In this document: piece by piece, positions 23,643-61,003 of the stretch
How the letters are laid out: each line of letters begins with the position of its first letter
How positions within the stretch are numbered: the stretch's first letter is position 1
Assembly: GCA_044892525.1 (NCBI GenBank)
Contig: CM097885.1
Location: forward strand, 26,972,001-27,036,000
Length of the DNA stretch: 64,000 nt
Source of the DNA: Schmidtea polychroa
Taxonomy: Eukaryota
Direction: 5' to 3'
The notes under the pieces: generated by a model
The model's database searches: none
What the model saw: the letters and a program-made list of their open reading frames with translations, nothing else
Told to the model about the DNA's origin: nothing
Made by a program: the position numbers and the translations under genes

Positions 23643-23797
23643 TGTAAAAATGAATGTATCTTGAAATTAATATGCAAGATTAATGCATATTTTGTTTGGT
23701 TAATGTAACAAGTATTTGATTTGTTGATAAAATGAACAAATGAGAGATGTATGTGAGACAGTGTGTGTATAGAACTTAAAGTTTATCATTATTTCAA

Positions 23798-24208: not shown

Positions 24209-24401
24209 TATCTTATGTTATTTTTATTAAATAAATGTTTCTGTTTAAAAATCGTGTTGTTATGATATCATAATTTGGTTGTCATAATAATATTTAAAAT
24301 TTAAAATAATCAATATAATTACCTAGAGTTATCCATTATTTTCAATAATATTAGTAAATATTAATTACCGTGGACGGGTTTCATTAAAAGTTATACAAAA
24401 T

Positions 24402-24797
24402 ATGAATTTTCCTTATGGTAAACCTCAGCAAATAATAGATAAAACTGATAATTATACAATTATATTCTTCAAGACAGGGAAATGTCGAATAATGGGTTGC
24501 AAAAAACCTATTGAAAGCATACATTATAATATTAAAGATGTTCATCTTCAATCTTGTACAATTACTATTGATATCAAACAACTAATTAATTTGCAATATT
24601 TGTCAAAGAAAACAAAATGTGTATATGAACCAGAAATATTCCCGGGTTTGCGTCTCATATCTTATAACCCCTTGTGTGTAAACTTGTTTTCTAGTGGAAA
24701 AATAGTTGTACTTGGTTTAAAAACTCTAAATTATAATTGGATTGTCAACAAAATTATAAATGATGTAAATGATTTGATTGGTTCACAAAAACTATAA
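24402..24797 (+). CDS. TATA-binding protein (TBP)-like protein; frame open upstream to about 24327
   Basis: Two TBP repeats: IIFFKTGKCRIMGCK and YEPEIFPGL...VNLFSSGKIVVLGLK; upstream in-frame LVNINYRG resembles the first strand. Confidence 0.88.
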   Translation: MNFPYGKPQQIIDKTDNYTIIFFKTGKCRIMGCKKPIESIHYNIKDVHLQSCTITIDIKQLINLQYLSKKTKCVYEPEIFPGLRLISYNPLCVNLFSSGKIVVLGLKTLNYNWIVNKIINDVNDLIGSQKL

Positions 24798-24833
24798 ATA
24801 TTGTACACTTTAACATTTGTTTCATTTATTACA

Positions 24834-25189
24834 ATGTCACAAGTTTCTGAAATCGGTAAATAAATATATTTTATTCTTAAATTTTAAAATTATGTTTAGA
24901 TTATCAAATAGAAATTCTAATTAATAAAGTGTTTGAGATTTATCCGGAAATCAAAGATGAAATTATAAATTATGCTCCGGAAATTGCACCAGCCAAAATA
25001 TTTCAGGCAACTGGGATTAACATAGAGCGCATTATTTTTCACCATAAATTTATGATGTATGGATATGAAAAGCAAACTCAATTACTAAAAGATTCATGTT
25101 GTCAATATCAATGTCAAGAATGTATTACTTACAAAAGAAAACAAACAGTAAACATTCTACTCAACGAATTGTATAAATATTTCAAATAG
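24834..25189 (+). CDS. Two-exon Cys-rich hypothetical protein (exons 24834-24855 and 24900-25189)
   Basis: A 44-nt GTAAAT...TTTAG intron joins MSQVSEI in frame to DYQIEILINKVFEIYPE...; CCQYQCQEC cluster. Confidence 0.7.
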
Positions 25190-25228
25190 TTTTTTAATAA
25201 ATGTTTCATTGTTTTGAAAATTTAATTA

Positions 25229-26023
25229 GAAATAGTAAATATTTTTTAAATTGCGCGCGAAAAATAATTTTTAAAACAAAGATTCGACATCTCTGATTTT
25301 AATTACATATAAAACAAAAACATTGGTATTAATATCTCTATTTATATTGGCTCTATATATTAATCAAATGAGTTTATTTAAACAAATATTCATAGTTGAC
25401 ACAATAACAGTATACATTTGAACAAAGATTTGAAATCTCCATTCAAAACTACTATAGAAAGCTGAAAGTCCCATCAAAATATGTAAATTTTACGATGCAC
25501 TGTCATAAATAGAATGGTTGAAAATATTTCAAAGTCCGTCGGACATAGCCGAATTTTTGAGAATTATCGATTGGTTTTACTTTTTCTTAATTCCTGGGAG
25601 AACCAAGAAACTTTTCGAGGATTTTATTTCGGAATCTCCTTAGTTGAATCAAGACGCAACTTTTTTGTTAAGGATGTCTCGACTAAATATACTTGGTTCC
25701 CAATGTTCCAAAAAATATTCCTTAAAAACGTGACATATATATTGAAAAGAAATCTTTTTGTTGATTTCATATAAATTAATCTGTGTCGACAAATAACAAA
25801 TCTTTTTTCGTGGACAATGTCTGGGTGAAATCTTTAATGTAAGAAAAGCACACCTGAATAAATTTTACACATTTTGCACATTTTGCACATTTTGCACTTT
25901 GCACTTAAAAATCAATATATGCGCGATAACTCATCGATCAAACGCGCAATAACTTATCAGCAAGGGGGGGGGTATATATGCGCGATAACTCATACTGATT
26001 CATGGGGCTCACATCTACCTACT
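25229..26023 (-). repeat. Right TIR of the Polinton (about 795 bp)
   Basis: Near-perfect reverse complement of the outer and inner parts of the left TIR. Confidence 0.95.
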
Positions 26024-32311: not shown

Positions 32312-32628
32312 TGTTAGAAGCTATAACATTTAATTCTTCGGTCATCAAAATAAATTACTAAGACTATTAAATCCAAAATTATATTTCATTAAATCTGATT
32401 ATATAAACAAATATTCTTGGGACATTTTCTAAATTTTAATTTCAACCAAATATCAACATACCATCGCATTCATACTTGAATTTCAATTTTATTAAAAATT
32501 ATTTTATTTTAAAATTTCAATTATCATTTCAATTTTAATATCTTAAAATAATTTAAGTTTCAATTAAAACTTTACAAATTTTAATCATGAACTAATTTAA
32601 TTTAGTATTTTAATTTTAACTCCTCACA
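32312..32628 (-). repeat. 3' LTR
   Basis: Direct repeat of 37056-37372 with one substitution seen. Confidence 0.97.
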
Positions 32629-35600
32629 TCCCCTTTTTTTAAAATGTTTGATCTTCTCAACATTTCTGACTACCATCTTCCCATTTTGATCTTTAAGTAA
32701 GTAGCTCCGTTCATGTATTTTCTTTATCACTTTGTACGGCCCTTCCCACCTTGCATCGTCTTTATTTCGAATTTCTTGTTTGATCAAGACCACATCTTCT
32801 ATTTCAAAATCTCTCACTGTTTTGCTTATTTTTGGTTTTAGTGTTTTATCCTCTATTCTCTTTTCCATATCTTCTCTATTTATTTCTTTATTCGAGTACC
32901 ATTTCATTCTGTCGATTTTCCTCCCAAATATAATCTCTGCTGGGCTTACTCCCGTTGTTTTTTGAACTGTTGCATTTAACGTATATTCTATTTCTGGCAC
33001 TATATCAGCCCAGTTTTTCCTTCCTCCTTCATTCAATGACGCGTTAATATACTCTCTGATTGTTCTGAATTGTCTTTCAATAATACCATTCGTGTTATGG
33101 TGATATGGGCTTGAGAAAATTAATTCAATGCCAGCTGCCTTTGCTAGTTCTTTTATACTTCTTGCTTCAAAGTTCTTCCCACAATCTACATGAAGTTCTT
33201 TTGGAGCTCCAAACTTTAATATCCATTTATTTAATAACGTCTCACTAATTGTTTTTTCGTCTTGCTTGTTTATGGCCGTTAATGAGATGTATTTACTATA
33301 GTGGTCAATGATTCCGCAAATATATTTCTTTTTGTTGAACGTTTCTTTCAATGGCCCACATATATCCATATATATCTTCTCGAATGGTTCTGTACTCTTT
33401 ATTGTTTGAGTTTCCTCCTTTGTCTTGGTTGTTATCGTTTTCATTTTCTGACATCTTTCGCAGTTCTCAATTACCTTTTTTACTTCCGTTGCTAAATTTT
33501 CCATGTCGCAGTTATTCTGGATATATTTTGTTACTTTCTGTGCACCTGCATGGCACAGCAATACGTGTACTTCTTTTATCATCCTCTGTCTATTATCTGA
33601 CGGTATCCATATTTTACCTTGCTTAGTTAGTACCGTGTTGTTTTCCATTATGAACTTACAATCTTTATTTTCTAACTTATTCTTTATTTCTTGGACCTCC
33701 ATATTGTCATTTTGCCACTTGTTATATCCGCCTTCTGCTGTTACTGTTACTATTCTGGTTTTAATTTTGCCGGTTTTTGCGTCTTCGTGTTCCATCATAC
33801 ACTGTACACATGTTCCGCATGTTTTCCTGGATAGCATATCCGCGTTTGTATGGCTTGTTCCTTTCCTGTATTTCATTTTAATATCCAGGCTGCTTAAATA
33901 GTTGATCCATGTCTGGAATTGAGCAGTTATTGGTTTCTTCGTTGTTACCATAAACGTAATAGCTTTATGGTCCGTTCTCAGTACGAATCTCTTACCATAT
34001 AAGTAATGGTTGAAATGTTTACAAAAATAGTATATTGCCAATAATTCTTTTCTGGTAATGCAGTATCCTTTTTCGTGGCTGCTCATCGCATGTGAACCAT
34101 ATGCAATGACATGTTCATGTCCTTTTTCATCCTTTTGCGAAAGAACTGCTCCAATAGTATCGAAGCTCGCGTCTGTGTCTAATATAAATTCTTTTCTGAA
34201 ATCTGGAAATACCAATACTGGGGCGGTTATCAATGCTTCTTTCATTTCCCTGAAAGCCTTTTCACACATCTCTGTCCATCTTATTTTCTCATTGTTTTTT
34301 CCGCATATGCTTTCTAGTGCTCTTGCCTTCTTTGCATAGTCTTTTATGAACCGTCGATAATAGTTACAGATACCCAGAAAGCTCCTCAGATTCTTCACAC
34401 ATTTTGGTTTTTGAAATGATTGTATTGCTTCTATCTTAGTATTATCTGTTTGTATGCCGTCTTTATTTATTATGTGTCCCAGAAACTTCACTTCTTTTCT
34501 AAATATTTGACATTTTTCGGGGTTCAATCTTAGTCCTGCTGTTGCGATCTTCCCTAGGACTTTTCCAAATATGTTATAATGGTCTTCTTCTGTCTTTGTG
34601 AATATTAGGATGTCGTCTAAATATACCATCACTCCATCTTTCCACAAATCTTTCAATACTTTCGTCATTAATTCTTGAAATGTTCCTGGTGCCGCTGCAA
34701 TACCGAACGGCATCCTGTTAAAACAGAACTGTCCTTCTTTTGTTGAGAATGCTGTTTTCTCTTGAGATTCTTTATCTAACTTCACTTGGTAATAAGCATT
34801 TCCCAAGTCGATTGAGCTAAAATATCTGGATCCGTGTAGGATGTCTAAAATTTCATCTACATTTGGCATTGGAAATGCTTGTCTTTCTGTTATCTTGTTT
34901 AATTGTCTGAAGTCTAGACAAAGCCTGATGTCTTTTTTCTCTTTCTTCCATACACAAACTAAAGGTGTGTTCCACGGTGAATTACACTTCCTAATTATTC
35001 CGTTGTTTTCTAGATTTTTTATTGCTTCCTCAATCTTGTTTTCCAAATTTATTGGCTGACGTCTCGGTTTAATCATTATTGGCTCTCCTTTCGTGATGAT
35101 CTTATGTTTTATCAGATTGGTACACCCAATGTCCCATTTATCTGCCATAAAAACATTCTTGTTTGCCTGAAATATTTCTAGCAGTCTCTTATTTCCGGTA
35201 ACTTTTAAAACGTCGATGGCATGACGTAATCTTTCTTCATCTGTTATAATCCGCCCAAATCTAGCTTCTATTTCGCAAATGAAATCACTACGTTTTCCAT
35301 GTTCTTCTAGTATACATTTCAATTCTATACCAAATAACCTTTGTAGTTCTACTCCTCCAATAATTTCTGGTATTAAATTCTTTACTATAATGAATGTTAC
35401 ATTTCTTTCAATACTGCCCATTTTAACATTGATGTTTATTTTACCCATAGTTTCTAATCTACTGTTGTTTGCACATCTTAGCGATTCCCTTGTTTCTAAT
35501 ATTTCGATATTTTCTAATCGATCAATTACAGATTTAGCCATCACATTAATTCGCGCTCCTGTATCCAATAAACAATCTACTTTCCGCCCTTGGATATCCA

Positions 35601-35946
35601 GTGTTGTACTCGGTCTACCTTGCATTATATTATATGTTATTACTGGACTTTTTTGTTCTTCTACTGACAAAATATTCTGCTCTCTAGTATCTTCTACAAT
35701 TTCATTAATACACATGTCTCCATTTTTCTTGAGGAATTTGTAAATTTTCTCTATAGTTCTTTCCTCGTGTTTTACTAATTCATTTACTTTACACTCCTCT
35801 TTAAATTTTTTCTGAATTTCCTTATCATTCGACTTTTTAATTTCTACACTACTATTATTATTAATATCACGTTCAAAAACACTACAATCTTTATCAATCA
35901 TACAATCATCATACATACTTAAATTACACATACCGTTAGCATTCAT
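32602..35946 (-). CDS. pol: Pol polyprotein (protease, RT, RNase H, integrase)
   Basis: LLDTGA, YLDD, LDTDAS, H-H-C-C zinc finger, YMDICG/HVDCG/IERQF triad, GPY motif; uninterrupted. Confidence 0.97.
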   Translation of the reverse strand: MNANGMCNLSMYDDCMIDKDCSVFERDINNNSSVEIKKSNDKEIQKKFKEECKVNELVKHEERTIEKIYKFLKKNGDMCINEIVEDTREQNILSVEEQKSPVITYNIMQGRPSTTLDIQGRKVDCLLDTGARINVMAKSVIDRLENIEILETRESLRCANNSRLETMGKININVKMGSIERNVTFIIVKNLIPEIIGGVELQRLFGIELKCILEEHGKRSDFICEIEARFGRIITDEERLRHAIDVLKVTGNKRLLEIFQANKNVFMADKWDIGCTNLIKHKIITKGEPIMIKPRRQPINLENKIEEAIKNLENNGIIRKCNSPWNTPLVCVWKKEKKDIRLCLDFRQLNKITERQAFPMPNVDEILDILHGSRYFSSIDLGNAYYQVKLDKESQEKTAFSTKEGQFCFNRMPFGIAAAPGTFQELMTKVLKDLWKDGVMVYLDDILIFTKTEEDHYNIFGKVLGKIATAGLRLNPEKCQIFRKEVKFLGHIINKDGIQTDNTKIEAIQSFQKPKCVKNLRSFLGICNYYRRFIKDYAKKARALESICGKNNEKIRWTEMCEKAFREMKEALITAPVLVFPDFRKEFILDTDASFDTIGAVLSQKDEKGHEHVIAYGSHAMSSHEKGYCITRKELLAIYYFCKHFNHYLYGKRFVLRTDHKAITFMVTTKKPITAQFQTWINYLSSLDIKMKYRKGTSHTNADMLSRKTCGTCVQCMMEHEDAKTGKIKTRIVTVTAEGGYNKWQNDNMEVQEIKNKLENKDCKFIMENNTVLTKQGKIWIPSDNRQRMIKEVHVLLCHAGAQKVTKYIQNNCDMENLATEVKKVIENCERCQKMKTITTKTKEETQTIKSTEPFEKIYMDICGPLKETFNKKKYICGIIDHYSKYISLTAINKQDEKTISETLLNKWILKFGAPKELHVDCGKNFEARSIKELAKAAGIELIFSSPYHHNTNGIIERQFRTIREYINASLNEGGRKNWADIVPEIEYTLNATVQKTTGVSPAEIIFGRKIDRMKWYSNKEINREDMEKRIEDKTLKPKISKTVRDFEIEDVVLIKQEIRNKDDARWEGPYKVIKKIHERSYLLKDQNGKMVVRNVEKIKHFKKRGCEELKLKY

Positions 35947-35969
35947 TCTTTGGTTAAAATCAATATTAC

Positions 35970-37056
35970 TTAGTAAATTGCTCCGATCAATGTCCCGTTT
36001 GACGGAGCGTGCTCGTTTGGGTCATTCTCCCTGTTATACTCGTCTGGCTGGCTTGACTGTTTTGTATTCATCATCTCATCATCAGACTCGATAGCTGCAA
36101 TATCTTTTCTGTTATATTGTTGGTTTCCCCATTGTCTTTGATGTACGTTCCTTGATTGATACATATCGTCCCTTTGTTGATAGGTATTTCTTTGAATTCT
36201 TCCTCCTGACATCTTCCTTTGGTCTCGATCTCTTCCTTGATTTCGTCTTTCCATATTTGTGTAGCACTCTCTTTCTTTGTGTCCTCGTGCATTGCATCTA
36301 TGACATTTGATTGTTGGGCATTCTCTTCGTATGTGACCTTCAACACCACATGCATAACATTGAAATCTTCTTTTTATATTACATTCTCTGCTACTGTGTC
36401 CCGGTTTTTGACACGTCCAGCATTCTATCACTTTAACTCTTGTCTCTGGTTTCCATTCGTTGATTTCTCTCTTCGTGGCTCCAACTTGTACTACATCTCT
36501 ATAAGTTCTTCCCCCAGTTGTAGGTCGTATTGATCTCACCGTGTTTACTTGTTCAATAACCTTGTTAACTTTTTCTATCTTCTTTATAGTTTCTTTAATT
36601 TGTTCCGCCGTTTTGAGATCTTTCATTTCGATTTCTTTCCTGACTTCTTTATCTCTTACACAATGTGTCAATAAACATTTCTGAATTTCTTCCTCATTCC
36701 AAGTGTGTGAGGCCAATTTTTTAGTCATTTTTGATATTTTCTCTATAAATATTTCCGCTGATTCGTTACCTTGCTCGTAGTTCAAGGCTTCTCTTAAGTC
36801 ATCAATCAATGACGTTGGTCGATGAAAAGCTGCTCTTAATTTCTGTTCAACGGTTTTACCTTCTGTGGTTTCATATTCTTCAATCAAAGTCCTGTCCAGA
36901 AGTGTAATAACTAGTACCATTTGGGTCTTCACTGGTGTCTTCGCTTTTTTCAAAGAACCTCTGACATTCTTTGATAAATAATTCGAGGTCATCTCCTCTG
37001 TGGAATTTTTCTGGAAGTAATCTTCCAATAAGCAGATCCGTTGGAATGGTCGCCAT
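35970..37056 (-). CDS. gag: Gag with three CCHC zinc knuckles; frameshift in an A-run at about 36945-36950
   Basis: CWTCQKPGHSSREC, CYACGVEGHIRREC, CHRCNARGHKEREC; the N-terminus MATIPTD...ECQRFFE is in a different frame. Confidence 0.9.
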
Positions 37057-37372
37057 GTTAGAAGCTATAACATTTAATTCTTCGGTCATCAAAATAAATT
37101 ACTAAGACTATTAAATCCAAAATTATATTTCATTAAATCTGATTATATAAACAAATATTCTTGGGACATTTTCTAAATTTTAATTTCAACCAAATATCAA
37201 CATACCATCGCATTCATACTTGAATTTTAATTTTATTAAAAATTATTTTATTTTAAAATTTCAATTATCATTTCAATTTTAATATCTTAAAATAATTTAA
37301 GTTTCAATTAAAACTTTACAAATTTTAATCATGAACTAATTTAATTTAGTATTTTAATTTTAACTCCTCACA
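37056..37372 (-). repeat. 5' LTR
   Basis: Adjacent to the PBS; direct repeat of 32312-32628. Confidence 0.97.
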
Positions 37373-38085
37373 ATAATAATGTCGAGTTGTTACAAATATG
37401 TTAGAGTTGGGCCAACAGAGATTGGCGGAAAATGACATAATATGATGAATAAATAAAAATAGCAATTTTACAATTGCTAAAAATACAATATGATGGGCTG
37501 GAACCCGAGATAACCTAAATTTTCTATAAATTTGAACTTTCCATAAAGTAATTAAATGAAACCCTGTATTAACATAAATTGAGGTAGTCAGACAAATGTA
37601 AGGAAAAATAAAGAATGAGAGAAAGAAAAATAATAGAATAAAACAAAAATCACCAAAATAAAATAAATAATAAATAATTCGCAAACAGACAAACAACATA
37701 TAACCATAACTAATGTTGGGCTGAGAACTAAGACAAAAAATTAAAAGCATGAAATAATGTAAATAAGCAAAAAAGACAAAAACAATAAGAAACGACAAAA
37801 AGTACCACCAAAATCAAATAACAAATTAAAATAAATATATAATAAGAATATTAATTGAATAAAATATAAAAAAAACAAAAAAAAACAGAATTAAAACAAT
37901 AAATTTAAAGAAGCAAAAACATTAAATAAGGATAATAATAGGAAAGCGACACCAAAAATATGCAATTAATATAAAAATTTATAGAGAAAATTAATACAAT
38001 TTTAAGAGAAAACTTAAAAGACGAGTAAAATTACAAAAAATACATAAATTTTAATTAAATTAATTAATTTTGCGATACCTCGATT

Positions 38086-38223
38086 CTGATTGGTCCGCAA
38101 ATTCCACAATAGACTATATAAACTAGACATTGAAACAAAAATTTTAATGTCAAAATACCAAACATTTAGGTAAGATGAGTTACAATATTTTTATAATTTA
38201 ATATCAAAATACCAACCATTTAG
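38086..38223 (+). promoter_or_regulatory. CCAAT/TATA promoter with short first exon and 54-nt intron (38170-38223)
   Basis: CTGATTGG, TATAAA at about 38117, AG|GTAAG and TTTAG|. Confidence 0.65.
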
Positions 38224-38801
38224 GTCAACTACAAAACATTTAGCACTACGACAATTCACTTTACTCAAGGACTAAAATTACACGTTCCAGCTCACAAAAC
38301 TCGAAAACCAGACGCAGTTATTCATTATAAAGCCTTTAGAGAAAGATTTTGGTAAAATTTAATTTTTATCTATATTTCATTTTTGTATGTAACGTATTCT
38401 AACTACTAAATTAATGAAGGAATGGTTCGTGTTCCTTTTCCTTTTTTCATTTTTAATATCTGTAATACTTTTAATATTTTTTTTAAAAAGTTTCACATTT
38501 TATATTTAGTATTTTAATAAAGCTTTTCATTGAAATTAACTATGTTTTGATTTTTTTCGTAATATCGTACTTAAAATAATTATTAATAAATAAGAATGAT
38601 TTTTAATATGAACATTTGGCAGATAATTTATTCGCACACTCATCAGGCCATACTAGAGGTGAACCGAACAACAGTCGTCTCGTTACTATCAAAAATTTAA
38701 CCCGATAAAGACGTGAGAGTAAACGCGAACCAACAGTAACTAATTCACTCAACCTTATCTGTAATTAAGAAAAATAGCTAAAAAACAACACGACTTAGTC
38801 C

Positions 38802-38919
38802 TGATTGGACGAAAATTAGTATATAAGACGACCGTTAAGTTAGTTAAGTAATTACTCTAACTTCACTACAGGTAAAGTTTTTCAATTATTAACAATTAAT
38901 TACTCTAACTTTACTACAG
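38802..38919 (+). promoter_or_regulatory. CCAAT/TATA promoter with short first exon and 48-nt intron (38872-38919)
   Basis: CTGATTGG, TATATAAG, CAG|GTAAAG and CTAAC...TACAG|. Confidence 0.65.
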
Positions 38920-39953
38920 GACTAACTTCAGTACAGCAACTTTAACTACTAATAATCATCAGGAACTCATAGAACGACTAATTTTAGCAAACATTTTACA
39001 GATTCATTTAGCAACGATTTAGAATAGAAACTACTTTATCGCAAGTTATTACGGGACAATATTAGATTCAGGAACTTTAGCTATTGAAACCATTTCAAAG
39101 ATCCGTATATTCAGTTCAGTTTAACAGTTCGAGCAAAGCCGTTAAAGAACCAAGTAAAGATTTTGATTATTGATGATTTTATCTTTATTATTTTAATTTT
39201 TACGAGTGAATTCTAATAGTAAATTATCATGAATGTATAAATTTTCATTAAACAAAATATTATATTTATTAGCACACTTGTCTTTTCTATTCACGGAACT
39301 GGCGACGGTGCCGTTTGAAATCTCTGGATATGATGCCAATGAACCGAGGACACGAGAATTATAATTCGAATAGTTTCGAAGACATGTAGTTGGATCCTAT
39401 AGATAAAATGATTGGAAGGAAGATTCTATTATGTCAATGAGGAATCATCAGAAGAATTCAATATGAGCATTGTTGGAAAATGAACTGCGTTAGTAAAGTC
39501 CCATGTCGTGCATCATACTCAGAAACCAAAGGACATGGTCGCCAGGTAAATTTGATATTGGTGGGTTACAGGTCGTCTAATTTCTACCTACTCGCGCTGT
39601 TTCCAGCGTAACCCAGAATACAATGAAACCGTTGACCGCTTGACACCCGTTGAGCAATCAACGTTGGTACTGTGTCAAGGGTTAGGGTACTAGCAAAAGG
39701 TGAGCATGCTTAACATACTATAATTGTCTAGCACCCTCTGGGGTTCACGGACTGCCGATAGAACGCTTATGACCGATTTCTCTAGGTCCCCGTTATGACA
39801 ATTGACGTTTTCGAATAATCGGAATACACGAACGCTAACATAACAACAATGATTTTTTATTTGAGATCACCCCTTTATATGACGAGTTCATGAGGCTCTG
39901 GTAGACTCCTTCGGGGTAGTCGATTGAATTGGTGTTTGTACCAGGCTGGCCTG

Positions 39954-40276
39954 TCATCCGGGTAGCATCCTAGGGTACCCGTCGATGTCCTCCAGGTCGC
40001 CGGCTAGGGTTGCATCCTCGAGCCGTTGTAGTTGATCCACAGCTGCCTTTCCATCTTCGAAGGCTTCGACCAGAGCTAGGGAGGTGGCGTTGACGAAGGG
40101 ATCACCGGGACCACATTCTGGTAGGTCCAGTCGTGAATCTTGTACCAGATCCACCTTGACCTTAGTCGGGTGACTTCTCCATCTCGGTCCGGATTGGTGG
40201 AGTCTTCTGCCTCCTCGTGGCTCGGGTCGGTTGGTGAGGGACCGGCCTGTGCATTTCTTTGTCTAGTGTTGGGCAT
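39954..40276 (-). pseudogene. Small acidic/disordered ORF (MPNTRQRNAQAGPS...) with a frameshift near 40160
   Basis: GC-rich coding-like island; acceptor TTTTATCACAG directly before the ATG; two overlapping track ORFs. Confidence 0.45.
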
Positions 40277-40832
40277 GCCTGTGATAAAATAACATTAAGG
40301 TACTTCCTAACGAGCCTTTTGATCACCAATTCTGGTTTTATAAAGCAAATCTTAAATTCCGACTCGACCTTAGGATTAAACTTAAAGACACGGTCTTCGT
40401 CTTTTAACTTGAGAAGTATATATTGGCCAAACCAAGCTGAGGGCATAATTTTATATCTTGGCTCCAAACTTTAACTTAATGAAACTTAACTACAGCGAAA
40501 TCTTTATGCTCTGTTGGGCTGAGTCGGAAAATCAATTTGGGAAATTAGGAAAATAAAATAAGCAAGAGGCTAAAGAAAAACAAAATAAAATAAAACAAAT
40601 TACGAATAAAATATAAGAAAAACAATAATTAGGAAATAAGAATTAAAACAAAAATAAAAATAGAAAATTAAAATAGGACAATGGAAAAACGGATAAAATA
40701 ACGTAAAATTCAATAAATAATAAGGAAATTAAAGAAATAAATAGAAAATATAATAAAAATAAAGAAAATAGGAAGAAATAACCAAAAACAAGAAAAATAA
40801 ATTAAAGCAACAAAATTAAGCGGTACTCAATT

Positions 40833-40960
40833 CTGATTGGTCCGCACACACAGAAAATTAATATATAAACACGCACAAAAATCATAAAATTACTGTTAAT
40901 CTAAACATTCTACAGGTAAGAGTACTTTTAAATAATACTGTTAATCTAAACATTCTACAG
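40833..40960 (+). promoter_or_regulatory. CCAAT/TATA promoter with ~25-nt first exon and 45-nt intron (40916-40960)
   Basis: CTGATTGGTCCGCA (shared with 38086), TATAAA at about 40864, CAG|GTAAGA and TCTACAG|. Confidence 0.7.
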
Positions 40961-42826
40961 ACCTACAATAACCGACAAGGATAATCAACAATCAAAATCA
41001 TTTTCTAGGAGCATTCAGAGATCGAAATCGAGACAACTAATTACTGAGAAAGTACCGAATCTATTTCCGACTCAGCCTACAACACTACAAGTGATACGTA
41101 AGCAGATTTTTGTTTGAAAGTATTAGTAATCATGAGATGTTCGTAAAAGTAAAATTAAATGAATTATGATTTTCTTTTCGGTTGATCCCTATTAATATTT
41201 TCATATAATTTTAATGATTAAATAAATGGTTTTAATGATAAATGCGTTGTTTTAGATATATTTATGAATTAGTCGGAAAGTCTATAATTTTATGATTGTG
41301 CATTTTATGAGAAACGTGGAGTTGAGACGTTTCATGTCATGGTGTGAGGGGCCTTCGGGAGCTCAGCCGGTGGACATGAAACGTTTCAATCACGCAGCTG
41401 ACTTGGGCCGAAAAGTGGGGGCTTCCTCACGGGTCCGTCGCTGAAGGTTCCTAACTTAGTTGAAACAGTGGACTATAGATATATGAGAGATTTCAATTAG
41501 AAAATTTAGCTACGTTCATGATTCACAGTGATTTGAGGCGGCCACCACCAATTTTTCGTATCTGGAAAACTGTTATCCACCATAAGTCTGATTCGTAGCA
41601 CTAGTTCAGGCGACCGTAATCTATAAATCCGAGTTCGTCAACCCTCATCACATCTTGGTATTCAACCATCTACTTGATTCTTCCAAAAAATCATCTTAAT
41701 TCGAGAATTTTACTTCAATACCTGATAACTATCTGACGGGGTATCATAAACAACTTATACACGAAAAAGCAAAACACAAGACTTCCAATATAACCACACT
41801 TTATTTTTGAAAACGCTGGTTAACCAAAATATAGTACTTACAAAATGTTTCCGAAAATTAGCCGTCGGAGTAAGATTCATGGTCATCTTTTAGATAAGTA
41901 ATCCGATTCCCTGTCGTAGAATATATCCCACATTAGGGAAAGCCTCGTAATCATAAATCCACATTCTGCAGGTGAAAGCGAGTAAACGGAGGGGAACTGA
42001 CAAACACATAATTTTTCCGATATTGTCACCCGGTAAAATCTCATCCAACTACCCATGTGTGAATGCGAAATGCAATTGATATCGACAGTAGATACAGATA
42101 AGCATCCATGAGAATAGCACAGGACTACCAGCTTATCATGATCAGCGAGAGCATTTGTTGTAATATGTGTGCGACATGAATTATTAGATAGACAGCAGCC
42201 GGTGAGTAGGATCGATAACTATCACCGTGCAGTACACCGAACCGACCAATAAATCACTGACTTTTATCTGGTGCGAAAGTGTCTCGTGGCGCTGATAATG
42301 AGTAACAAATTAATCCGCTAGTCGACTTGGGGTCAACTCTCCACTGCAAACTATTTTTGTAATGTTCACGTTTTTAGACCACCATAATAATAAATAAACT
42401 GCCCTGCGTATATTTAAATCCTCGGCATGAAAGATATTAAATGGGAGGAGGAAATGCCTGTTGGGGGAATAATTCGTCTCGAATTATGTTAACTATAATA
42501 GTCTTGGGTCGAGGTCTAAATAATGAAGTGAGGGTTTAGGGAGGAATTCGGTGTGTGTTGAATTTAGTAATAGCATAATTGTCACCATGATCCCGGATTT
42601 TGCATTTGTCAATACAATCGTGCCTAACTATGTAAATAAAATTATGTAATAAATCTAGCAGTAACAAATTAATTACCTGAGATTGTAAATTTCTTACTAG
42701 TCAGTGTGGTCTCCTTGTTTTGTTGTAAGTATCAAATATGAATAAATAATCTGTAGGGTGGAGTGATGTCTTCATAAATGCCGTATATTTGTATAAAAAT
42801 TTTCTTCACTTTTCTATCTAACTGTC

Positions 42827-43576
42827 ATGCTACCGAATAATCGACCCGCATTACGTCCTTGTTTCTCCTGCGCCGATAAAAACTCTATTATCAAGGATCT
42901 GCAGGCCCAGATCGGTCGATACAAGAAGAAGATCGACGAACTGGAATGCACATGGTTCAGCCCAGTGCAAATGAAGGAGGTTCGAAAGAAATTATATCGC
43001 AGTGAGCATTGTCGGGATGCCCTGATTTCTGAGAGCCGTTCCCAACGGAGCTTGATAAAGGAGCAATCTGAAGCGCTCCACAAAGTATATTTACAAGCAG
43101 CAACTACGAGGCAATTAGTCAGTATACCCATTCACGAAGCGGACAATGTTTTCCCGATACATCACGACACCTCGTTTAAGTCGTCACCTCCGGCCAAGAA
43201 GTCTTGTCGGGAATGTGTTGAAGCCGACCTCTCCCCCAGGCATCCAGATATCGTTTTCCCCAAGATCGGTAAGGTGCCAATCGCCGGTACCTCTACCTCG
43301 GCGGTACCTCCGATTAGTCAGGTGGCACCAAAACCCAAGCGACGGCAATTGTCGAGAGCCGATCGCAAGAGAAAACAGCGAGAGCGCGCGGCCGCCAAGC
43401 ACAACGAACAGCCAGCGGAGAATCCTATTAGTGTTCAGCACCCTCCGACGACAATTGATCTGACCATCGGGGTCCCAGGGCGAATTATCTCCGCCGCTGG
43501 AGTGACCTGGGAGGAAAATGCCTCCGAATTCTTTGATTTGGAAGAGTTGTTGGCCGACACTGAGTGGGAAAAATGA
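42827..43576 (+). CDS. Element-encoded 249-aa protein: CxxC, coiled coil, basic NLS-like segment, acidic tail
   Basis: Intact GC-rich ORF with two clear paralogues in the window (PCFSCxDKN...FSPxQMKE...EHCRD...SEALHKVY). Confidence 0.85.
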   Translation: MLPNNRPALRPCFSCADKNSIIKDLQAQIGRYKKKIDELECTWFSPVQMKEVRKKLYRSEHCRDALISESRSQRSLIKEQSEALHKVYLQAATTRQLVSIPIHEADNVFPIHHDTSFKSSPPAKKSCRECVEADLSPRHPDIVFPKIGKVPIAGTSTSAVPPISQVAPKPKRRQLSRADRKRKQRERAAAKHNEQPAENPISVQHPPTTIDLTIGVPGRIISAAGVTWEENASEFFDLEELLADTEWEK

Positions 43577-45524
43577 GAATCCTCTGTCCGTTCAACCCGC
43601 TTCGAAAGACGAATATCAATGTTTCTTTTCTTATTTTCTCATCATTCATGTATAACTGTGCGGTGTAAATTATCAACGTTTTATCCCATCGTGAGGAAAT
43701 AAATCATGTTTGTTGCTAATGTTCTTATTATATTTTTTGTGTAAAGTTTATGACATAGATTTTAGTTATTCTAATCAATATCAGTGAAAATCTTTATAGG
43801 ATCTATAAGTGTCTTCTAAGGCCGGGTTGTTGGTTTGAACGAACGGTCTGATGATATGAGTAGACGTAAGTCCTTCTATCGGCAGTCAAGGGAAGGAAGT
43901 CGAGGCCTCAGTAAGGAGTAGTCCAAAGGTAGGGGCTCACCTGCTTACTGGCGTCTCGCCGACATAGTGCATTACCAACGTGAAGTAATTCACGGGTACT
44001 ATGCTGGAATATAAGTTGTGCGGGGTACCGCTCGGAGTTACAAAGGGAATGGATAAAACAGACAAAGTAGACCATCATCTCCTAGGCAAAAAGTGAAATT
44101 GTAGAGGTGAGTCCGAGTAGTGCCCCAGCAGCTCATTCACTTTAAAATTCAGATTAAAGAAAAATATTTTCGACCCTAATCTAATTTTACAAATTAAGGA
44201 GGAAAAATCCAACTCGTCATATACTTTAAACCTTAATTGAAAGTCAGATTTCTTATTTTTCGAATTTCTTAATTTATGATATTGTTTTAGTTCGCTACTT
44301 AATTAAAAAAATATTTTATGTCAACATGTTACTATTTAAAATTCTCTTTTTTAAATATTAATGGCTTTCCACCGAAACCAATTGCAAGGTGTCGAACGGT
44401 AATGCTTGGAGCTTTGCACAAGCTACTTACCCTCTTCTACCAACAATTGTAGTAGGTGGAACTTTCGTCTTACCACATAAAAAGGTAAATTTTATTTGAT
44501 CTGCTACAAATTGAATTTTAGGTATTTGTTTTGGCTAGTGAATTTTACTAGTGGATTGATTAGTTGCGGAAATAATGCTGGGAATTCACGGGACGTCTCG
44601 ATTTGATAGTAGAATTGGTTGGTGGATACCTAACGTAATGGAGATGGATTTGTTCAGTTCATTCGTCATTTACATCATTCGACTTTCCTTTTTCCATTTC
44701 AATCGGTAAGTTTAATTTCAAGTCAAGAATTTTTAAATGCGATCGTACATGTCTAATTATAGGATATGGTATAGTTGCACAGGGAGCTAATGGGGAGATA
44801 AATGATGATCACAACTTTAGATTTAGACTCTTGGATATATCAGCAATTCTGTGTTGACTGAGGCTGTGATAATAATAAAAATTCCTGGTGTTATTATTTA
44901 TGGTGAATTATTGCCGATATGTGACGGTTGTATGTTAATTTCTGATTAAAAATTTTGCTCTGAGATGAAAATATAGGTTGACTGAAAATTATTTCAGGGT
45001 GATAATAATAGCTGTAATAATAATGATCACATCGATGGTCTACATCACGGATGATAATGAAATCGCGATAACCTCGACACTAACGGTGCTATTACTACCG
45101 GTAACAATAGTCGATATAACGGCAGGGGGAGTAATGGCAATTTCATAATTTATTATACATATTATTGAACTTGAGGTCTATACCATTGTCTCCTCTCATT
45201 ATATAACCAGGGAGGGGTGGCTTGGGTAATTTTAGATTATGTATTTATCTATTTGATGTCTGCATATACATACTCACACACATACACCCACGTATGCACA
45301 CAGATATATAGGTATATATGTACATCATTACATTACTTTGGGGTGGGGGTTGTTACTAAAAATAGATTAGGGGGGTTTGGTAATTTTATTGGGGAATAGG
45401 ACTGTTGAAGTTAAATCTAGAGATAGGGGATTTCCAACATTAACACTTTGTTTATATTATTTTTATAAAATAAGATTATTTTAATAATATAATACCATTA
45501 GTGGGAGCGACTGAGTTAAAAGAA

Positions 45525-45775
45525 AAATTGTGAAAATAATAATGACAATCATACTAATATTAATGATGATACCGCCATTAAGGGAAACATAGTAAAAATA
45601 CTAATGACAATAATAATGATATTAATGATGATAATATTACTAATGTAAAATTTGAAAAAATAATAATGACAATAATAATGATATTAATGATGATAATATT
45701 ATTAAGGTAAAATTTGTAAAAGTAATAATGACAATAATAATGATATTAATGGTGATATTATTATCAAAAAAAAAT
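45525..45775. repeat. Minisatellite, ~63-bp unit, about 4 degenerate copies
   Basis: Recurring TAATGACAATAATAATGATATTAATGATGATAATATT. Confidence 0.8.
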
Positions 45776-48179
45776 TTATATTTTTATAAGACTATTACCT
45801 ATCCACGGCTTGAGGGGGGTTAATTATGAAAAATTGTTCAAATTAATTTCTAGACGAAGTATAAGTGAATTTATCTAAAAATAAAATAAATTAGAGCCGT
45901 TGGGTAACCATTATTGAGTATGGTCCAAGGGGGTCATTTATGGAAAATTTCTAAATTTATATCATAAAGATAATCTAAGCAAAATATGCATATAACATAA
46001 TCAAACATAGATTTGGAGAAGTACCGTTGGACGATAAAAATTTAAAGTTTTTATATAACTTGTCTTTAGTACATATAAAAATAAACCTAAAAAAGAACTC
46101 TGACGAAATAACTTAGGAATCATTTTATAATTAATCAAATAGACACAAAATAAGGATTACATTTTAACAAGTGCAAAAATCTAGATGTTAATAAAGATCG
46201 TGTACGTTTGGGTATTAGTCACATGACATAGACCTTGAGGGGTGAATATAAAAATCGTATAAGGTATTTCTGGCGAAATTAAGCTTTCGAATATAATTTT
46301 GGCTAGTTGTTATGATCCTAAATGATGAAAAGATATTTTATTCCGTGATATTTCTAGGTGTAGTAGACTTTTAGATAATAATTAGGTTTTCTAAACATTT
46401 AATTTTGTACTACTATATGATGATAGGTGGTTCGTTAGAAATTATTGTAGGGTCGTTACACTGTTAGCCTTCTAATATTAATTTTTATAACATCAAATAA
46501 GGAAAAGGTAGGTTACTTCGAAGTGGATTTTAAGTTTTCGAACCAAGATATAGTTTTCTGAAATAGTATAGTAGAAATATAATTTATTCGAAGAGGCATT
46601 GGTATCATTTTATTTAATTTCTGTCTTTATATTTTTGTTGTCTTTCCTCTTAATTAATATTGTTTATTTGATGTATTTTTTATATTTAACTGAACTTATT
46701 GCTATTTGCGTGCTATGTACCCACGCACGAGTTTTTGGGTCTAGAAATCAGTTCTAGCCCAACAATATTGATAATTTAGAAAACGAAATGAAATTATTGA
46801 CACAGTTTTATTTATGTATTATTTCACATTTATGATTTATTAGCATTGATAATTACGGTCGATCGGTCTATCGTGGCGGTCTCGATACGGTCGGTAGCAA
46901 TACCGGTGGTCCCCAGGTGAGCCTTGGTAAGTGGAAAGACCACTGAGGAGATATATAGAAATTTCGAAATATTAAAGGAAAATAAGTGCCTTCATCGAGT
47001 GGCAGACATCATAGATTAGTAGATCGCTGATTTTCGAGACTAATATCACAAGTTTCTGATATGAATTTCAACCCTTTTGATAGTTAGAGAGTGACAAGGA
47101 TTGTGGAGACAATCGAATCGTCATAAGCGTTATCAGTATAATCCGATAGGGAATAGATAATCCAATTGTCGACTTAAAAACTACAGTAGTTATTTGTGAA
47201 CATGAGATAACTAGATTCTTGCGAAACGAATAATTACTCCAGGTGGCCAGATCATGTCATTAGTTATCGCTAGATAGTAAATCCTTGACTTTCACCGTAA
47301 TTGCCAGAACATTTTTAACGTAGACATTCCAATGTAAAACGAACGTCGATAGAATTTTCTTCATTTCACCATTGTTAATTTAATAAACCGAAACCTCCTT
47401 TCATTAGATCGATGAACGCTGGTAAGGATAATCTATACATCCTGCCGACGAGATTTCATTTTCCATATAATTCATTCCAAAAATTGTCTTAGTAAAATAA
47501 ACATTGATGATAGATTAAGTAAACTAATTCGGATAAGATCGAGAAATGATTTACATAAATTGATAAACATTATTTCCATCTCTTAACGTCAATTACATAA
47601 ATCTGAAAGTCATAGCATGGGGAGTACCAGTCATCCGGGTTTTCGATAAATAAATCAGATTAGATCAAGATTAGTGCGAGAATAAACAATTTATCAGATA
47701 ATCATTCCTCACATAGAATTTACACGATAATTATCTGTGAATCAACCACGTTGTCAAACAAATTAACCACATAAACAAATCCATGTTAGTAAGAATTTTA
47801 ATAATAAGGTAAATTAAATCTTCCAAATTTCCACTTATAAACACAAATCATTTATGTTAATAAGAATATAAATTCCTTCTAAACGATTGTATTTTCTCAC
47901 GCAGTTCATGCAGTGTACGGCCGATAATACATAAAATCCCGAAAACGTTTTTTCGAATAATTAATACTTCGTCAAATGAAATGAATCATTCAGGTTGATC
48001 AAACCTCACCCTTAGTAACATCAATATTCAGGGAAAATGTCGTTCGTAAAATGTATGGAATACGGGGTATCGAGATAGTATATGGAGTGAAAGGGAAGGG
48101 AATTGTTATGAAATGCTTACTAATCTGCTACAGCTGAACTTTTCTCCTGTCGCGTTAAACTCTTATTTATTTTTCAGTT

Positions 48180-48941
48180 ATGTGCGAGCCGAATCTACAG
48201 CCGAAAGGGCCAAGACCTTGTTTTTCCTGTGCAGACAAAAATGCCGATATAAAGAAACTGCACGAGTACATAGGGGCTTTGAAGAAACGCATTGAAACAT
48301 ACGAATGCACATGGTTCTCCCCGCCACAAATGAAGGAGAAAACTAAAATCTTGAGACTGGAGCACTGTAGAGACAGTCTCCTCGAAGAAAGTAGATGTCA
48401 GAGATTGACCATCAAGGCCCAGTCGGAAGCCTTGCATAAAGTATATTCAGAATAGGAAATCCAGAAGAGAATACGGGAATACCCTATTAAGGACGGAACC
48501 AACGTGTTCCCTCTTCATCACCGAGCTGATGAACTACAATTTCCCGTAACCAATTTCACAGGACATGGAAGTCAATTTCCACTCATAGCCGATTCAATCT
48601 TGTCTGGATCATTAAAGGAATCTAAGGCACCAGTAACGAACGACAAGGAACCAATTCCCGCTCAGATTTCTAATCTCATCACCGAACCCACTACTTCGTC
48701 GCCGAAGAAGCGCAAACGCCCTTCTCGGGCAGAGAAGAACCAGAAACGTCGAGATGCGATGGCCGCTTTGGAGGCATCCTTATTTGCGGCTCAGGCGTCA
48801 AAGGACGCAATCCCAAAGAAAATTCCGCTCGTCTCGGAAGAAACTTATCGCATCATCCCTTCCGAAACTCTACACTCTCAGGAATATGCTCGGCTGCAGG
48901 TGGACATAGACGATCTGTTAGCCGATGGAGAGATGCTTTAG
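48180..48941 (+). pseudogene. Paralogue of the 42827 ORF with an in-frame TAG at 48453-48455
   Basis: The two track ORFs are in the same frame; shared motifs and acidic tail DIDDLLADGEML. Confidence 0.8.
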
Positions 48942-49203
48942 TGAACACTGATATGATATCCCAGAAAATGCTGTTCGAACCCGAATGAACCTTACTCTCG
49001 GACATTCTGTATAAAGTGATTTGGGCTCTTCATTCTATTGTATTTGGTTAAATCGAGTCTCTCGGGTGCGAAGGTATAGGGAATTCTTTTTTCTTTTCTC
49101 GATCTATTATCGACGATCATAAAGGTCGAACAGATATTTTTTCAATTTCATTACCCATGATTCCGTTACTTAACTTTGCTATTACAACTTGATTACTTTA
49201 GAA

Positions 49204-49971
49204 ATGTCGAAAACCCCAACAGCTACGACTCTTCTTCTGCCATGCTTCTCATGCACCGACAAAAACGCAATTATCAAAACATTGCAAACCCAAATCAGAC
49301 TACTGAAGAAGAAGTCAGATCATCTCGAAGGGACATATTTCACTCCCGCTCAAATGAAAGAAGTGCGAATGAAGTTGTCGCGGGCCGAACACTGCCGCGA
49401 TAGTCTGATCGAGGAGAGCCGCTCGTTGCGACTGTTAGTCAAGGAGTAGTCTGAGGCCCTGCACAAGGTCTACGTGCAGGCAACGATTACGAAAAAGATC
49501 ACCTCAATACCCATCTCGGAGGAAGATAATGTTTTCCCGGGATATCATCCATCAGTCCCGTCGGAAAATCGAGCCTGCAATAGTTGCATGGACGAGCTCC
49601 TATCGCCCACAATATCTGACGCTCGTGCCGCTGGTGTCAACAGAGTGGCCTCAAGGCCTATCGTTATCTTGAATCCAGTCCCTCCTCCGGTGGTAAAAGC
49701 AACCCCTAAGCGTCGACAACCAACACGGGCCGAACGAACAAAAAGACGGAAGCTACTCCAAGCCGAGCGAGAGGCGAAGTTGGTCTCCGAAGCCATGCAG
49801 ATGTCTCGATCTGTGCCGGCTGAAACAGTAGCTCTATCACAGCCTCCGTTTCGGGTAGTCCCATCATCCAGCACTACCTGGGAAGAAGATGCGAGAGATT
49901 TCTTCGATCTCGACATGATTTTCGCCAAAGCTTCCTCGTCGACCTTGAAACATTATGTTCAAGAATTATGA
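49204..49971 (+). pseudogene. Paralogue of the 42827 ORF with an in-frame TAG at 49447-49449
   Basis: Same-frame continuation; TWEEDARDFFDLD matches TWEENASEFFDLE. Confidence 0.82.
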
Positions 49972-50559
49972 TGTTGTTATTGAATGAGCAGACCAGCTAT
50001 CATCAAATCCTTTTGTTTAATTCTCTGCTATTAATAATTCATGTAGATACACCCTCAGTATGCTGTGGAAATTGGTGTTATAATGGTATTTCTTTAAATA
50101 AATGTTGGATCACGTAGTAATGATAGTTCTGATATCTGTTTCCGAAGTTTTCTTTTGTTGTATTGTAAAAAATGGTGAAACCATGGTGATGAATGAGAAA
50201 TTGATAGTGAAGTCACATAATTTTGATCGATACCTCGAATAATGGAAAAGACATAAGCCCTTCTACCGGCAGTCGGGAAATGGAGAAGTCGAGGTAGGGT
50301 GAAGGAGTAGTCCTAAGGCAGGGGCTCACCTGCTTCACCTTATCTCGCCATCATGGCACAGTACCAACATGGTGTGAATCATGGGTGTCATGATGAGAAA
50401 GTAGTCGTGTAGGTTTTTGATTAGCGGTCAACATAATATGGTGTAAGGTTATTTTTTTGGACTATAATCCCCTGGTAACACGTAAACTCTTGTTGAACTA
50501 GGCGACTCTTTTGGAGTATCTTTTGGAGTCAGATAGTGTGAATAATGCTTGATCGCTAT

Positions 50560-50750
50560 CTTGCTCGTGTTTTAATTTTATTTTTAATTCGAATGTTTTA
50601 TTATTGTGATTTGTACTTTCTATTAAATTTTGTTTACTTAATGTTTATTGTTTTATTTTTATTCTACTTGATGCTGGGTATGCGTGTTATGTACCAACAT
50701 ACTTCGTCACAATTCTAACTTTGGGTCTAAAATTCAGTTTTAGCCCAACA
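50560..50750 (-). mobile_element. 5' end fragment of another TGTTGGGCT-family element
   Basis: Reverse complement reads TGTTGGGCTAAAACTGAATTTTAGACCCAAAG...AATTGTGAC, homologous to 58160. Confidence 0.7.
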
Positions 50751-51434
50751 CATAGAACGACTAAACAGGTAAATTTGACATTAAAACTATACAGAACATA
50801 TTACACTAAGAGTTTGTTCCTAAATTCGAGTCGGCTGATTGGGGCAAACAGATAATCTTTATGCTACTCAAAATCTATCAGAACCAACATTCGACGAAAT
50901 GAGTTGACTTTTGACGAAGGTGGGCGGGTATATTCAAATAATAGGAATGCTATCAAAAAAAAGTCATCGATAATTTTGCTGTAATCAACAAATCGGAATA
51001 ATAGGGAGATCCCTGCGCAAAATTCCCAAATTATATCTAAAGAAGCTCTAATTTAAAGTTAGATATACGTTTTCTTTAATGAAATTAACCAATTATTTTC
51101 CTTTTTATATCATACCCAATAGATTATAATGCAAATAATTCACCTTTTAGTAATTAGAAAAGTAAAAATCTCTAATAGGAAAATTTCATGTTACTGGGAC
51201 TAGACTAGGGAAAATAACAATCCAGAATTGCCCTATACTTAATGTCGATTATGAAAGGTTATTAACCATAATAATTAATCAAATTAAGATTTATACATTA
51301 TGAAAATGACAAAAACGTTGTTTAAAATAACTTAAATTTAACGATTTCAGTTATTTCAAATTTAGTAAATAAAAGCGTCATTTTATCGTTTTATCGTCTT
51401 TTTAGCTTAATCGTATTTACTAAATTTGCAAAAA

Positions 51435-53401: not shown

Positions 53402-55027
53402 TAGGGCTTGCAATACCGATTTACCGGTTAACCGGTAAATTGCTAAAAAATTCATTACCGAAAAACCGGTAAATTCATTATTTTTTACCGGTTTTTTCGG
53501 TAAAAATTTAAACTTTATATTACACAATATTTATCGTTTTGTTCCGTTCCGTGCATACTATTTTATAAGTAAATAGTTGAATTTAATATTTAAAATTAAT
53601 AATTATACTATAATAAAGAAATTCGACTTTATTTATAAAGTAGTATGTACGGAACAAAACGAAAAATATTGTAAAATATAAAAAGTTTCACACTTCTGTT
53701 CAGTGGTCACAAGTCACACTCGCACCTAAGTAAATATAAAACAAATTTTTGTTTCTTGTTGTGTATGCAAATGCGTGAAATATTCATGCTTAATATTCTA
53801 TTATTCTATCATATATATGTTAAGTGCTCGCTCAAACCGTGTTAAGTGCTCGCTCAAACCGAAGTAGAAATTTTTTATTTGTTTGTAATATTCAAGTTAT
53901 ATACTGACAGAAACGAATGTTTTTCGTGGAATTTCGAAATATTGAACAATTTTAACTGTTAAAATTGAAATACATAAATTGTTGCAGTATATAATTTATA
54001 AAAAATATATCAATTTTTTTTAATATAATAGAACGTCTCATAAAATTTAATAAAGGTAAGGTAATACAAAAAATACTAATTTATTCGTTATTTAAAACCA
54101 AAAAATATTTTAGCCATCATGCGTTCAAATTTAATATGGACCTATTTCAAAGAAACAAATAAGAATGAAGCCGTCTGCAATAGTTGTGCGAAACCGATTA
54201 AATGTGTTGGTGGTAGCACTAGTGGTTTGCATGCCCATCTTAAATCTCAGCATAAAATTAATCTATTGAAGAGAAAAGATGACGAAAGTGATATGGCATC
54301 ATCTAGTCAAATTACAAACAAAGTCATCGCTAGCACTACAAACAATAATATATCAAATTTCTTTATAAAAAAGGTTGATGATTCACTTCCAGCTGTTCTC
54401 GCGCGTTTGACAGCAAAAGATAATATACCGTTTTATAGAGTTGCCACATCCTACGATATCCGAGTACTAATTAAAGCTAAATATAATAAAGAAGTACCAA
54501 GATCTTCCCATACGATCAAAAAAATTGTAATGGACTATGGGGATAAAATTCGCAAACAAGTGGTTGAAGATTTATCCAACCGAAAAGCTAATAATAGTGT
54601 ATTCAGTTTGACGTTTGACGAGTGGACGTCTGTTAAGAATCGACGATATATGAACATAAACGTTTCAGCAGCCGGTCTGATCTGCACCAAGTTGAGGTCG
54701 ATCTTAAATGATAACACGTTAAACACAATGTGTTTTTAAGGCAGTATTTTAATCAAAAACAAGAGTTGAAATGAAGTTTTAATTTTTTTCTAATTTGCGT
54801 TTATACTTTTTTTTATATATTATAATGTTATGATTATGAATTAATAAAATAAAAGAATGAATTAATAAAATAACTGACTTGAATTTTATAAAACATATTA
54901 TAAGTAATTAGTTTGAATAAAATATCAACTAACTAAAATACTCTCAAAATTACCGGTTTACCGGTTTTTTCCACATAAATTACCGAATTACCGGTAATTG
55001 AAAAAGTCGGTAAATTTGCAAGCCCTA
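53402..55027 (+). mobile_element. Internally deleted hAT transposon, 1626 bp
   Basis: TIR TAGGGCTTGCAA, perfect 8-bp TSD TTGGTGAT, subterminal ACCGGT repeats. Confidence 0.96.
54119..54739 (+). CDS. Truncated hAT transposase: BED finger and first catalytic Asp fused to the C-terminal tail
   Basis: IWTYF...CNSC...HLKSQH BED finger, LTFDEWT, then SAAGLICTKLRS typical of the hATC end. Confidence 0.85.
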   Translation: MRSNLIWTYFKETNKNEAVCNSCAKPIKCVGGSTSGLHAHLKSQHKINLLKRKDDESDMASSSQITNKVIASTTNNNISNFFIKKVDDSLPAVLARLTAKDNIPFYRVATSYDIRVLIKAKYNKEVPRSSHTIKKIVMDYGDKIRKQVVEDLSNRKANNSVFSLTFDEWTSVKNRRYMNINVSAAGLICTKLRSILNDNTLNTMCF

Positions 55028-60841: not shown

Positions 60842-61003
60842 TATTATTATTTTTAAAAATATTATTATTTTTATTATTATTTTTAAAAATATTATTATTT
60901 TATTTTTAATTTTTTCAAAGTTCCCGCCAACGAAAATTAATAATCGATAGCTCATTTTAAAGCTCAATCCAAGACCTTTCGAATGAGCTATATATCTTGT
61001 TAC

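Follow-up and report, generated by a model that had tools for sequence, protein, structure and literature searches.

A candidate self-renewing first intron at the LTR-type promoter P2 in a transposon nest of Schmidtea polychroa

The P2 site (38849-38936 of the window, the whole 64,000-nucleotide stretch of Schmidtea polychroa DNA analysed here) is probably the promoter and R start of an LTR in which the tail of a short first intron would be a reverse-transcribed copy of exon 1, renewed in each cycle, its tandem position behind a second promoter, P1, being accidental. We further propose, more tentatively and at a strength a little short of probable, that LTR elements can possess a self-templating first intron: exon 1 would act as cap-proximal exon, as 3' splice site and as strand-transfer homology, splicing and reverse transcription together would rebuild the intron in each generation, and the device would be kept across deeply diverged subfamilies, with the element resembling a normal spliced gene. 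The words promoter, exon and intron as applied to P2 denote predictions from sequence; coordinates are collected in Table 1.

Table 1. Positions of the P2 site, its paralogues and the surrounding LTR-like units in the window
Feature	Positions	Strand	Remarks
Putative U3-like promoter P2, 3' end	38763-38848	+	reverse CCAAT box 38804-38808, TATA 38820-38826; A-rich upstream U3 missing
Predicted exon 1 of P2, 23 nt (copy 1), predicted R start	38849-38871	+	29 nt after TATA T; ends AG/GTAAAG
Predicted intron 1 of P2, 48 nt	38872-38919	+	first 25 nt unique; last 23 nt are copy 2
Decayed third copy, start of predicted exon 2	38920-38936	+	14/17
Predicted non-coding exon 2	38920-39153	+	followed by GTAAAG donor at 39154
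Predicted intron 2 of P2 piece	from donor 39154	+	broken up by nested units; acceptor predicted just before 48180
P1, predicted exon 1	38143-38169	+	TATA 38115; 54-nt intron to 38223 ending in exon 1 copy; donor 2 at 38352
P3, predicted exon 1	40891-40915	+	45-nt intron to 40960, 25/25 repeat; second donor 41098
P3-unit protein, open 249-aa frame	42827-43576	+	AATAAA 122 nt behind
ORF-A, paralogue of the 249-aa protein	48180-48941	+	one in-frame stop 48453-48455; likely of P2 piece
ORF-B, paralogue	49204-49971	+	one in-frame stop 49447-49449; AATAAA 50097; likely of P1 unit
5' part of host LTR-like unit	37714-38762	+	TGTTGGG start, A-rich U3, P1; cut off at about 38762
Nested solo-LTR-like unit	39559-46764	-	TG..CA ends, target duplication ATAT
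Innermost solo-LTR-like unit, 3,619 bp	40512-44130	+	TG..CA, target duplication GCTC; P3, 249-aa frame, AATAAA 43698
Further LTR-like unit	7136-10008		TG..CA, TGTTGGG start, 4-bp duplication TTAT

At P2, copy 1 (38849-38871) recurs as copy 2 (38897-38919) with 22 of 23 letters matching, and a GTAAAG donor stands at 38872, directly after copy 1, with 48 nt from its GT to the AG that closes copy 2 (38872-38919). The repeat-bounded GT-AG stretch of the original prediction is therefore real, as is its further decayed copy, which occupies 38920-38936 and matches the tail of copy 1 at 14 of 17 positions. Of the 5,834 sites ending in AG on the two strands of the whole window, three match the tail to this degree, and they are the three copies themselves; the layout AG/GTA...repeat-AG was found three times in the window and in none of 100 local Markov shuffles. 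The third copy has the C of copy 1 at the sole site where copies 1 and 2 differ, copy 1 having C at 38864 and copy 2 T at 38912; this suggests that it is copy 2 that carries the later change. The prediction of a promoter with a short exon 1 equal to the intron end is upheld by a CCAAT box at 38804, TATA at 38820 and a repeat that begins at +29, as in two paralogues. Its choice of CTAAC as the branch point is doubtful, since this adenine is only 11 nt from the intron end (-11), and two further branch-like motifs, TTAAC (-27) and TTAAT (-20), are placed like the TTAAT of the paralogous introns (-22 and -16). Folding of 38610-38770 was no better than that of shuffles (z -0.09).

The P2 layout is no assembly artefact, as public contigs of runs X1 (38799-39136) and X2 (38507-39136), which may come from the source sample, span it with no other letters; a contig from another study (X5) spans 38795-38941 with three other letters. 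Contig cover was absent over 38857-39071 in X7 and X11 and over 37854-39215 in X10, and metagenome contigs gave no match to the exact P2 motif. A looser CCAAT-TATA-donor pattern returned 14 viral and 97 metagenome matches, which we attribute to chance: these 111 matches at 110 loci had no repeat (best 13/20) and no blastn match to the region.

The pattern CTGATTGG..TATATAA occurs three times in the window, at P1, P2 and P3, and in none of 100 shuffles. At all three promoters the repeat stops exactly at AG/GTAA, and its start lies 28, 29 and 29 nt beyond the leading T of TATA. Pol II usually starts at such a distance from TATA, and the 5' edge of the repeat is accordingly the predicted cap site. 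Once past the junction, only 4, 4 and 0 of 10 nt are common to the two copies, and each intron has a unique 5' half. Copies 1 and 2 agree within one promoter at 21, 22 and 23 of 23 positions, whereas the 12 cross pairs between promoters agree at 8-15 of 23, so that some process appears to homogenise each pair while the subfamilies diverge. The pair is perfect in the innermost unit (P3, with an open frame) and has one or two mismatches in the older host (P1 and P2, with broken frames), which agrees with drift after insertion. Since P1, P2 and P3 are homologous, they demonstrate maintenance of the repeat, not three independent origins. Repetition of the process, as had been suggested from the decayed copy, is plausible, in that a third copy is present at P1 (15/20) as well as at P2 (14/17), with none at P3.

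One alternative explanation for this pattern is a one-off DNA-level duplication in the ancestral LTR, after which gene conversion or selection kept the copies alike, with spliced RNA and its reverse transcription playing no role. Gene conversion between neighbouring repeats is possible, and this, together with the existence of partial third copies, counts in its favour. It is also described, in the accessible parts of two studies, that tandem duplication of AGGT can make an intron (PMC3265369; PMC3443670). However, a tandem duplication doubles both sides of AG/GT, whereas copy 2 is followed here by GACT (ACCT at P3) and the 25-nt spacer is unrepeated, and a duplication model gives no reason why the 5' edge should stay at +28/+29 from TATA in three diverged subfamilies. 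We consider this account unlikely.

We favour instead a renewal of the intron during reverse transcription. Transcription is predicted to start at about 38849, and the cap-proximal 48-nt intron would be spliced out of the 5' LTR RNA. For retroviruses it is established, in the part of the source available, that minus-strand strong-stop cDNA copies the RNA's 5' end and anneals to R at the 3' end (PMC3185662). With the 3' LTR unspliced, the cDNA (exon 2, then exon 1) would pair in register with exon 2 and the intron tail; exon 1 would overwrite the tail, and the 5' half of the intron, copy 1 and U3 would be copied from the 3' LTR. Every cycle would then restore the intron and re-equalise both copies, with exon 1 having to serve also as 3' splice site. 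A repeat that runs from the cap site to the donor and stands directly before exon 2 has the look of cDNA of the 5' end of a spliced RNA, and because exon 1 would end like a 3' splice site, YAG/GT is accounted for without recursive splicing. The cap-binding complex favours a cap-proximal intron, and the 3' copy is without such help; this effect could supply the asymmetry by which the 5' intron is spliced and the 3' copy kept. Counting against the model, the LTR-like units at 7136 and 58160 carry GTAAG donors, 108 and 87 nt beyond TATA respectively, and no repeat (best 13/20 and 11/20), so that some LTR introns may do without such a device, or those introns may stay unspliced in genomic RNA. The promoter of these two units differs from P1-P3, with TATATATACCGACGCATTT and a CCAAT box absent within 80 nt.

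Against the renewal of the intron stands the conserved late AATAAA (43698 and 50097, 122 and 126 nt after paralogous ORF stops), as it implies that R is long, so that the 3' intron copy might likewise undergo splicing. Another possibility is that R is very short, with the end of the genomic RNA at copy 2 or close to it; the GT-AG stretch would then serve to form 3' ends and would be spliced out in the 5' LTR alone, against premature termination. This shares with the preferred reading a reverse-transcription origin and differs from it in purpose; it explains the same edges, and misregistered jumps near the RNA end would give third copies right behind copy 2. AATAAA is, however, absent inside all three introns, the conserved signal lies about 2.8 kb downstream, and one X7 contig is unspliced from 40822 to 41340, through and past copy 2 of the P3 unit, which counts against a short R if X7, taken as RNA by guess only (likewise X11), is RNA. 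We regard a purpose in 3'-end formation as improbable.

Other contigs bear on the splicing and renewal of the intron. A consensus of three related X7 contigs (agreement 0.7), which counts against renewal, has a 23-nt exon ending CAG, then GG, behind promoter sequence; it would represent either a subfamily that lacks the intron or a 3' LTR from which it was spliced. The 11 joints listed include no GT..AG skip at any of these introns. A single X5 DNA contig (depth 20.7) joins 38856 to 38916 with 12 other letters, a possible intronless relative that is too thin to count. Among the matches listed, a P2 relative differs within copy 1 at 38858 and 38861 (at least one contig in X2 and at least two in X5).

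These LTR promoters lie within a transposon nest, a context absent from the original prediction. We interpret the multi-kilobase units as likely solo LTRs of an integrase-type retroelement. TG..CA ends are present in the units 40512-44130, 39559-46764 and 7136-10008, whereas the P2 piece is without both ends and the host of P1 has the TG start only; for the P1/P2 host no 3' end was identified and no convincing target duplication was found. P3 lies 350 nt into the 40512-44130 unit, which is itself inside the minus-strand unit 39559-46764, and public DNA contigs carry the empty-site joints of both insertions (40507 to 44131 in two contigs of X1 and three of X5; 39556 to 46765 in two of X1 and one of X5). 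Judged by sequence alone, a Pol II promoter (CCAAT/TATA) and a poly(A) signal are both inside the repeat. The 64-kb window contained no internal region of these LTRs (PBS, gag-pol or a two-LTR full-length element). A candidate element at 38350-49144 and two CTAA duplications (45079 and 50805) were dismissed as chance. LTR-like TGTTGGG starts were also seen from 58160 and, on the minus strand, at 50750 and 46764, that at 50750 being a 360-nt inverted fragment which adjoins the 3' part of the host. Stable RNA stems are predicted early in intron 2 of the P3 unit (41310-41480, z -3.27) and of the P2 piece (39285-39555, z -2.48), and Rfam gave no match in 37700-50800.

The units encode a family of LTR proteins of about 250 amino acids; their N-terminal part, which contains Cys, is conserved, and a stretch rich in Arg/Lys is also present. 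No homologues were found among 870 candidates, and a comparison with 1.84 billion sequences gave two matches only, both repeat-protein noise; the LTR protein and downstream frames had no Pfam family at E 0.01, and Atlas scores for the LTR protein were at most 0.82. The sequence behind ORF-B is 73% identical to the 3' part of the P3 unit, and LTR 3' homology continues after the ORF-B AATAAA to about 50386.

The window as a whole is AT-rich (about 30% GC) and transposon-rich, with Maverick-type and gypsy elements. A Maverick/Polinton-type element at 10267-25900 has long inverted repeats and pPolB, integrase and A32-like ATPase frames, along with Bcl-2-like (23211-23666) and TBP-like (24327-24794) frames. 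On the minus strand a Gypsy element (32312-37355) with gag and pol frames ends about 360 nt before the start of the host LTR, and it appears to be a recent insertion because its terminal repeats are identical over at least 300 nt. A dense TGACTCA-containing repeat array behind a C-run (60111-60845) is followed by a RING-finger frame (61196-61741), and together these may be another element end; long AAT microsatellites occur at 894-1932 and 61968-62146, and a BED-finger frame at 54080-54736.

As to the tandem position of P1 and P2, P1 resembles P3 (68 identities, 28 mismatches, 4 gaps) more closely than P2 does (47/38/2) and has the same CCAAT-TATA spacing as P3, and ORF-B shares 115 identities with the P3-unit protein as against 99 for ORF-A. 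P1 and ORF-B thus look like opposite ends of a single LTR, P2 and ORF-A being enclosed by them. On the left side, relatives of P2 match 38763-38856 and have A-rich letters before 38763 (at least six contigs in X2 and at least nine in X5), and one contig joins P3-type U3 to 38793. Summed depth in X2, which does not equal copy number, is 8,700-12,100 over the P2 core (38771-38856), 58 over 38642-38684 and 77 over 38857-38899; the value at 38642-38684 (57.9) is the depth of its one identical contig. The link is covered, with no other letters, by one X2 contig (38507-39136), and the presence in X5 and X7 of a second variant of 38618-38760 counts against its being a chimera. On the right side, 49022 is where the match of an ORF-A relative ends and 49097 where that of an ORF-B relative begins. 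Without its nested inserts, the P2 piece (from 38763 to about 49050) is likely a fragment of another LTR subfamily within intron 2 of P1, the simplest reading being that it replaced part of that intron through insertion plus deletions or through template switching. As U3 plus an intact intron in another LTR, it could be a captured segment of unspliced 3'-LTR RNA. The predicted tandem of promoters is therefore present, apparently as a locus-specific junction of two LTR subfamilies at 38763 and not as a designed two-promoter unit; its upstream TATA starts at 38115, not 38117 as had been given. Both promoters are likely decayed.

The opposite interpretation is that of an inherited LTR with two promoters (P1 and P2) and two ORFs, where P2 copy 1 is a selected ratchet site for P1 transcripts. 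A textbook ratchet motif, CAG/GTAAAG (38869-38877), stands 520 nt beyond the P1 donor (38352), and two ORF paralogues lie downstream. Yet the link is in that single X2 contig, P2 relatives have ordinary U3 upstream, and P1 and ORF-B group with a single-promoter unit. The intron would measure 568 nt (38352 to 38919), as against more than 40 kb typical for fly recursive sites in the accessible part of the source (PMC6110457). YAGGTAA occurs 18 times in the window, both ORFs are broken, and YAG/GT is automatic wherever exon 1 equals the intron end, being present also at two promoters that have no tandem partner in their unit. A recursive site for RNA from the upstream promoter, as originally predicted, is thus formally possible for read-through RNA and otherwise unsupported; we hold a selected two-promoter unit to be very improbable, and the P1/P2 tandem is likely an accident of nesting, not a product of recursive splicing.

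A last alternative, that these are tandem promoters of a host gene or a product of chance, is largely refuted and has the smallest claim of all. CCAAT, TATA and a short first exon are the normal layout of an animal promoter, which would fit a host gene. Against this are the high-copy promoter core, the LTR ends, the target duplications and the nesting, the downstream frames without a Pfam family at E 0.01 and, with respect to chance, the 0 of 100 shuffles; no host gene was found for the P2 site.

An intron near the cap may promote RNA export or help to evade the silencing of intronless RNA. Retroelements normally lose introns that are spliced from the RNA they copy, as is stated for retroviral vectors in the part of the source available (PMC2266726). 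The layout at P2 offers a concrete and testable route by which an intron could be spliced and yet inherited, and any genome can be searched for its signature, a repeat that extends from the cap site to the donor. P2 adds a third, diverged subfamily to the case; the tandem placement and the ratchet motif of this site are probably incidental.

Several known systems bear comparison with the predicted intron, and our search of the literature on LTR introns renewed by strand transfer, and on Burro, found no description of such renewal, most subscription papers lying outside the search; the accessible text of PMC8532177 contains nothing about LTR structure. Trans-splicing in Caenorhabditis elegans Cer1 was rejected as a parallel on the portion available (PMC3315495). 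Recursive splice sites, as far as the accessible part of their description goes, likewise have YAG directly before GT (PMC6110457), whereas here the intron is short, the setting is a transposon nest and the repeat explains the motif. Intron gain through tandem duplication also yields direct repeats at the two borders of the intron, each ending in AG, according to the available parts of PMC3265369 and PMC3443670, whereas at P2 only the exon side is repeated, between the predicted cap site and the donor, in place of a whole intron with both sides of AG/GT duplicated. In Penelope-like elements a short intron of the 5' UTR (75 bp in Penelope) is retained within the terminal repeat by a mechanism stated as unknown; these elements have pseudo-LTRs derived from partial tandems and a GIY-YIG endonuclease, with an exon-1 copy at the intron end going unmentioned in the accessible text (PMC8557442). 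The units here differ in their TG..CA ends and 4-bp duplications, which are of integrase type, and no RT or GIY-YIG Pfam family was present in the five frames scanned. Comparable in setting are Ogre and the giant gypsy-like planarian LTR elements Burro/GYPSM1, with multi-kilobase LTR-like units, an AT-rich genome and Maverick alongside gypsy, as here; the part of the source available gives 30 kb for Burro in total and 1.9-6.5 kb for Ogre LTRs, with no mention of an LTR intron (PMC6431247). A giant internal region with a polyprotein of about 4,900 amino acids would mark Burro/GYPSM1; of the elements discussed here the window holds LTR-like units, with no internal region. In retroviral and LTR R regions a repeat at both RNA ends permits the strong-stop jump, and the 5' RNA end templates R of both new LTRs, as described in the accessible part of PMC3185662; unlike in this ordinary transfer, the 5' R here is predicted to be spliced, the acceptor would be an intron tail equal to exon 1, and an intron would be rebuilt by the jump. 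Among engineered systems the nearest parallel is provided by split-intron retroviral vectors, in which, in the available part of the account, a splice signal is copied from the 3' LTR and the intron is made in the progeny (PMC3182074); these vectors are one-way and self-disabling, whereas the element proposed here would renew its intron in every cycle.
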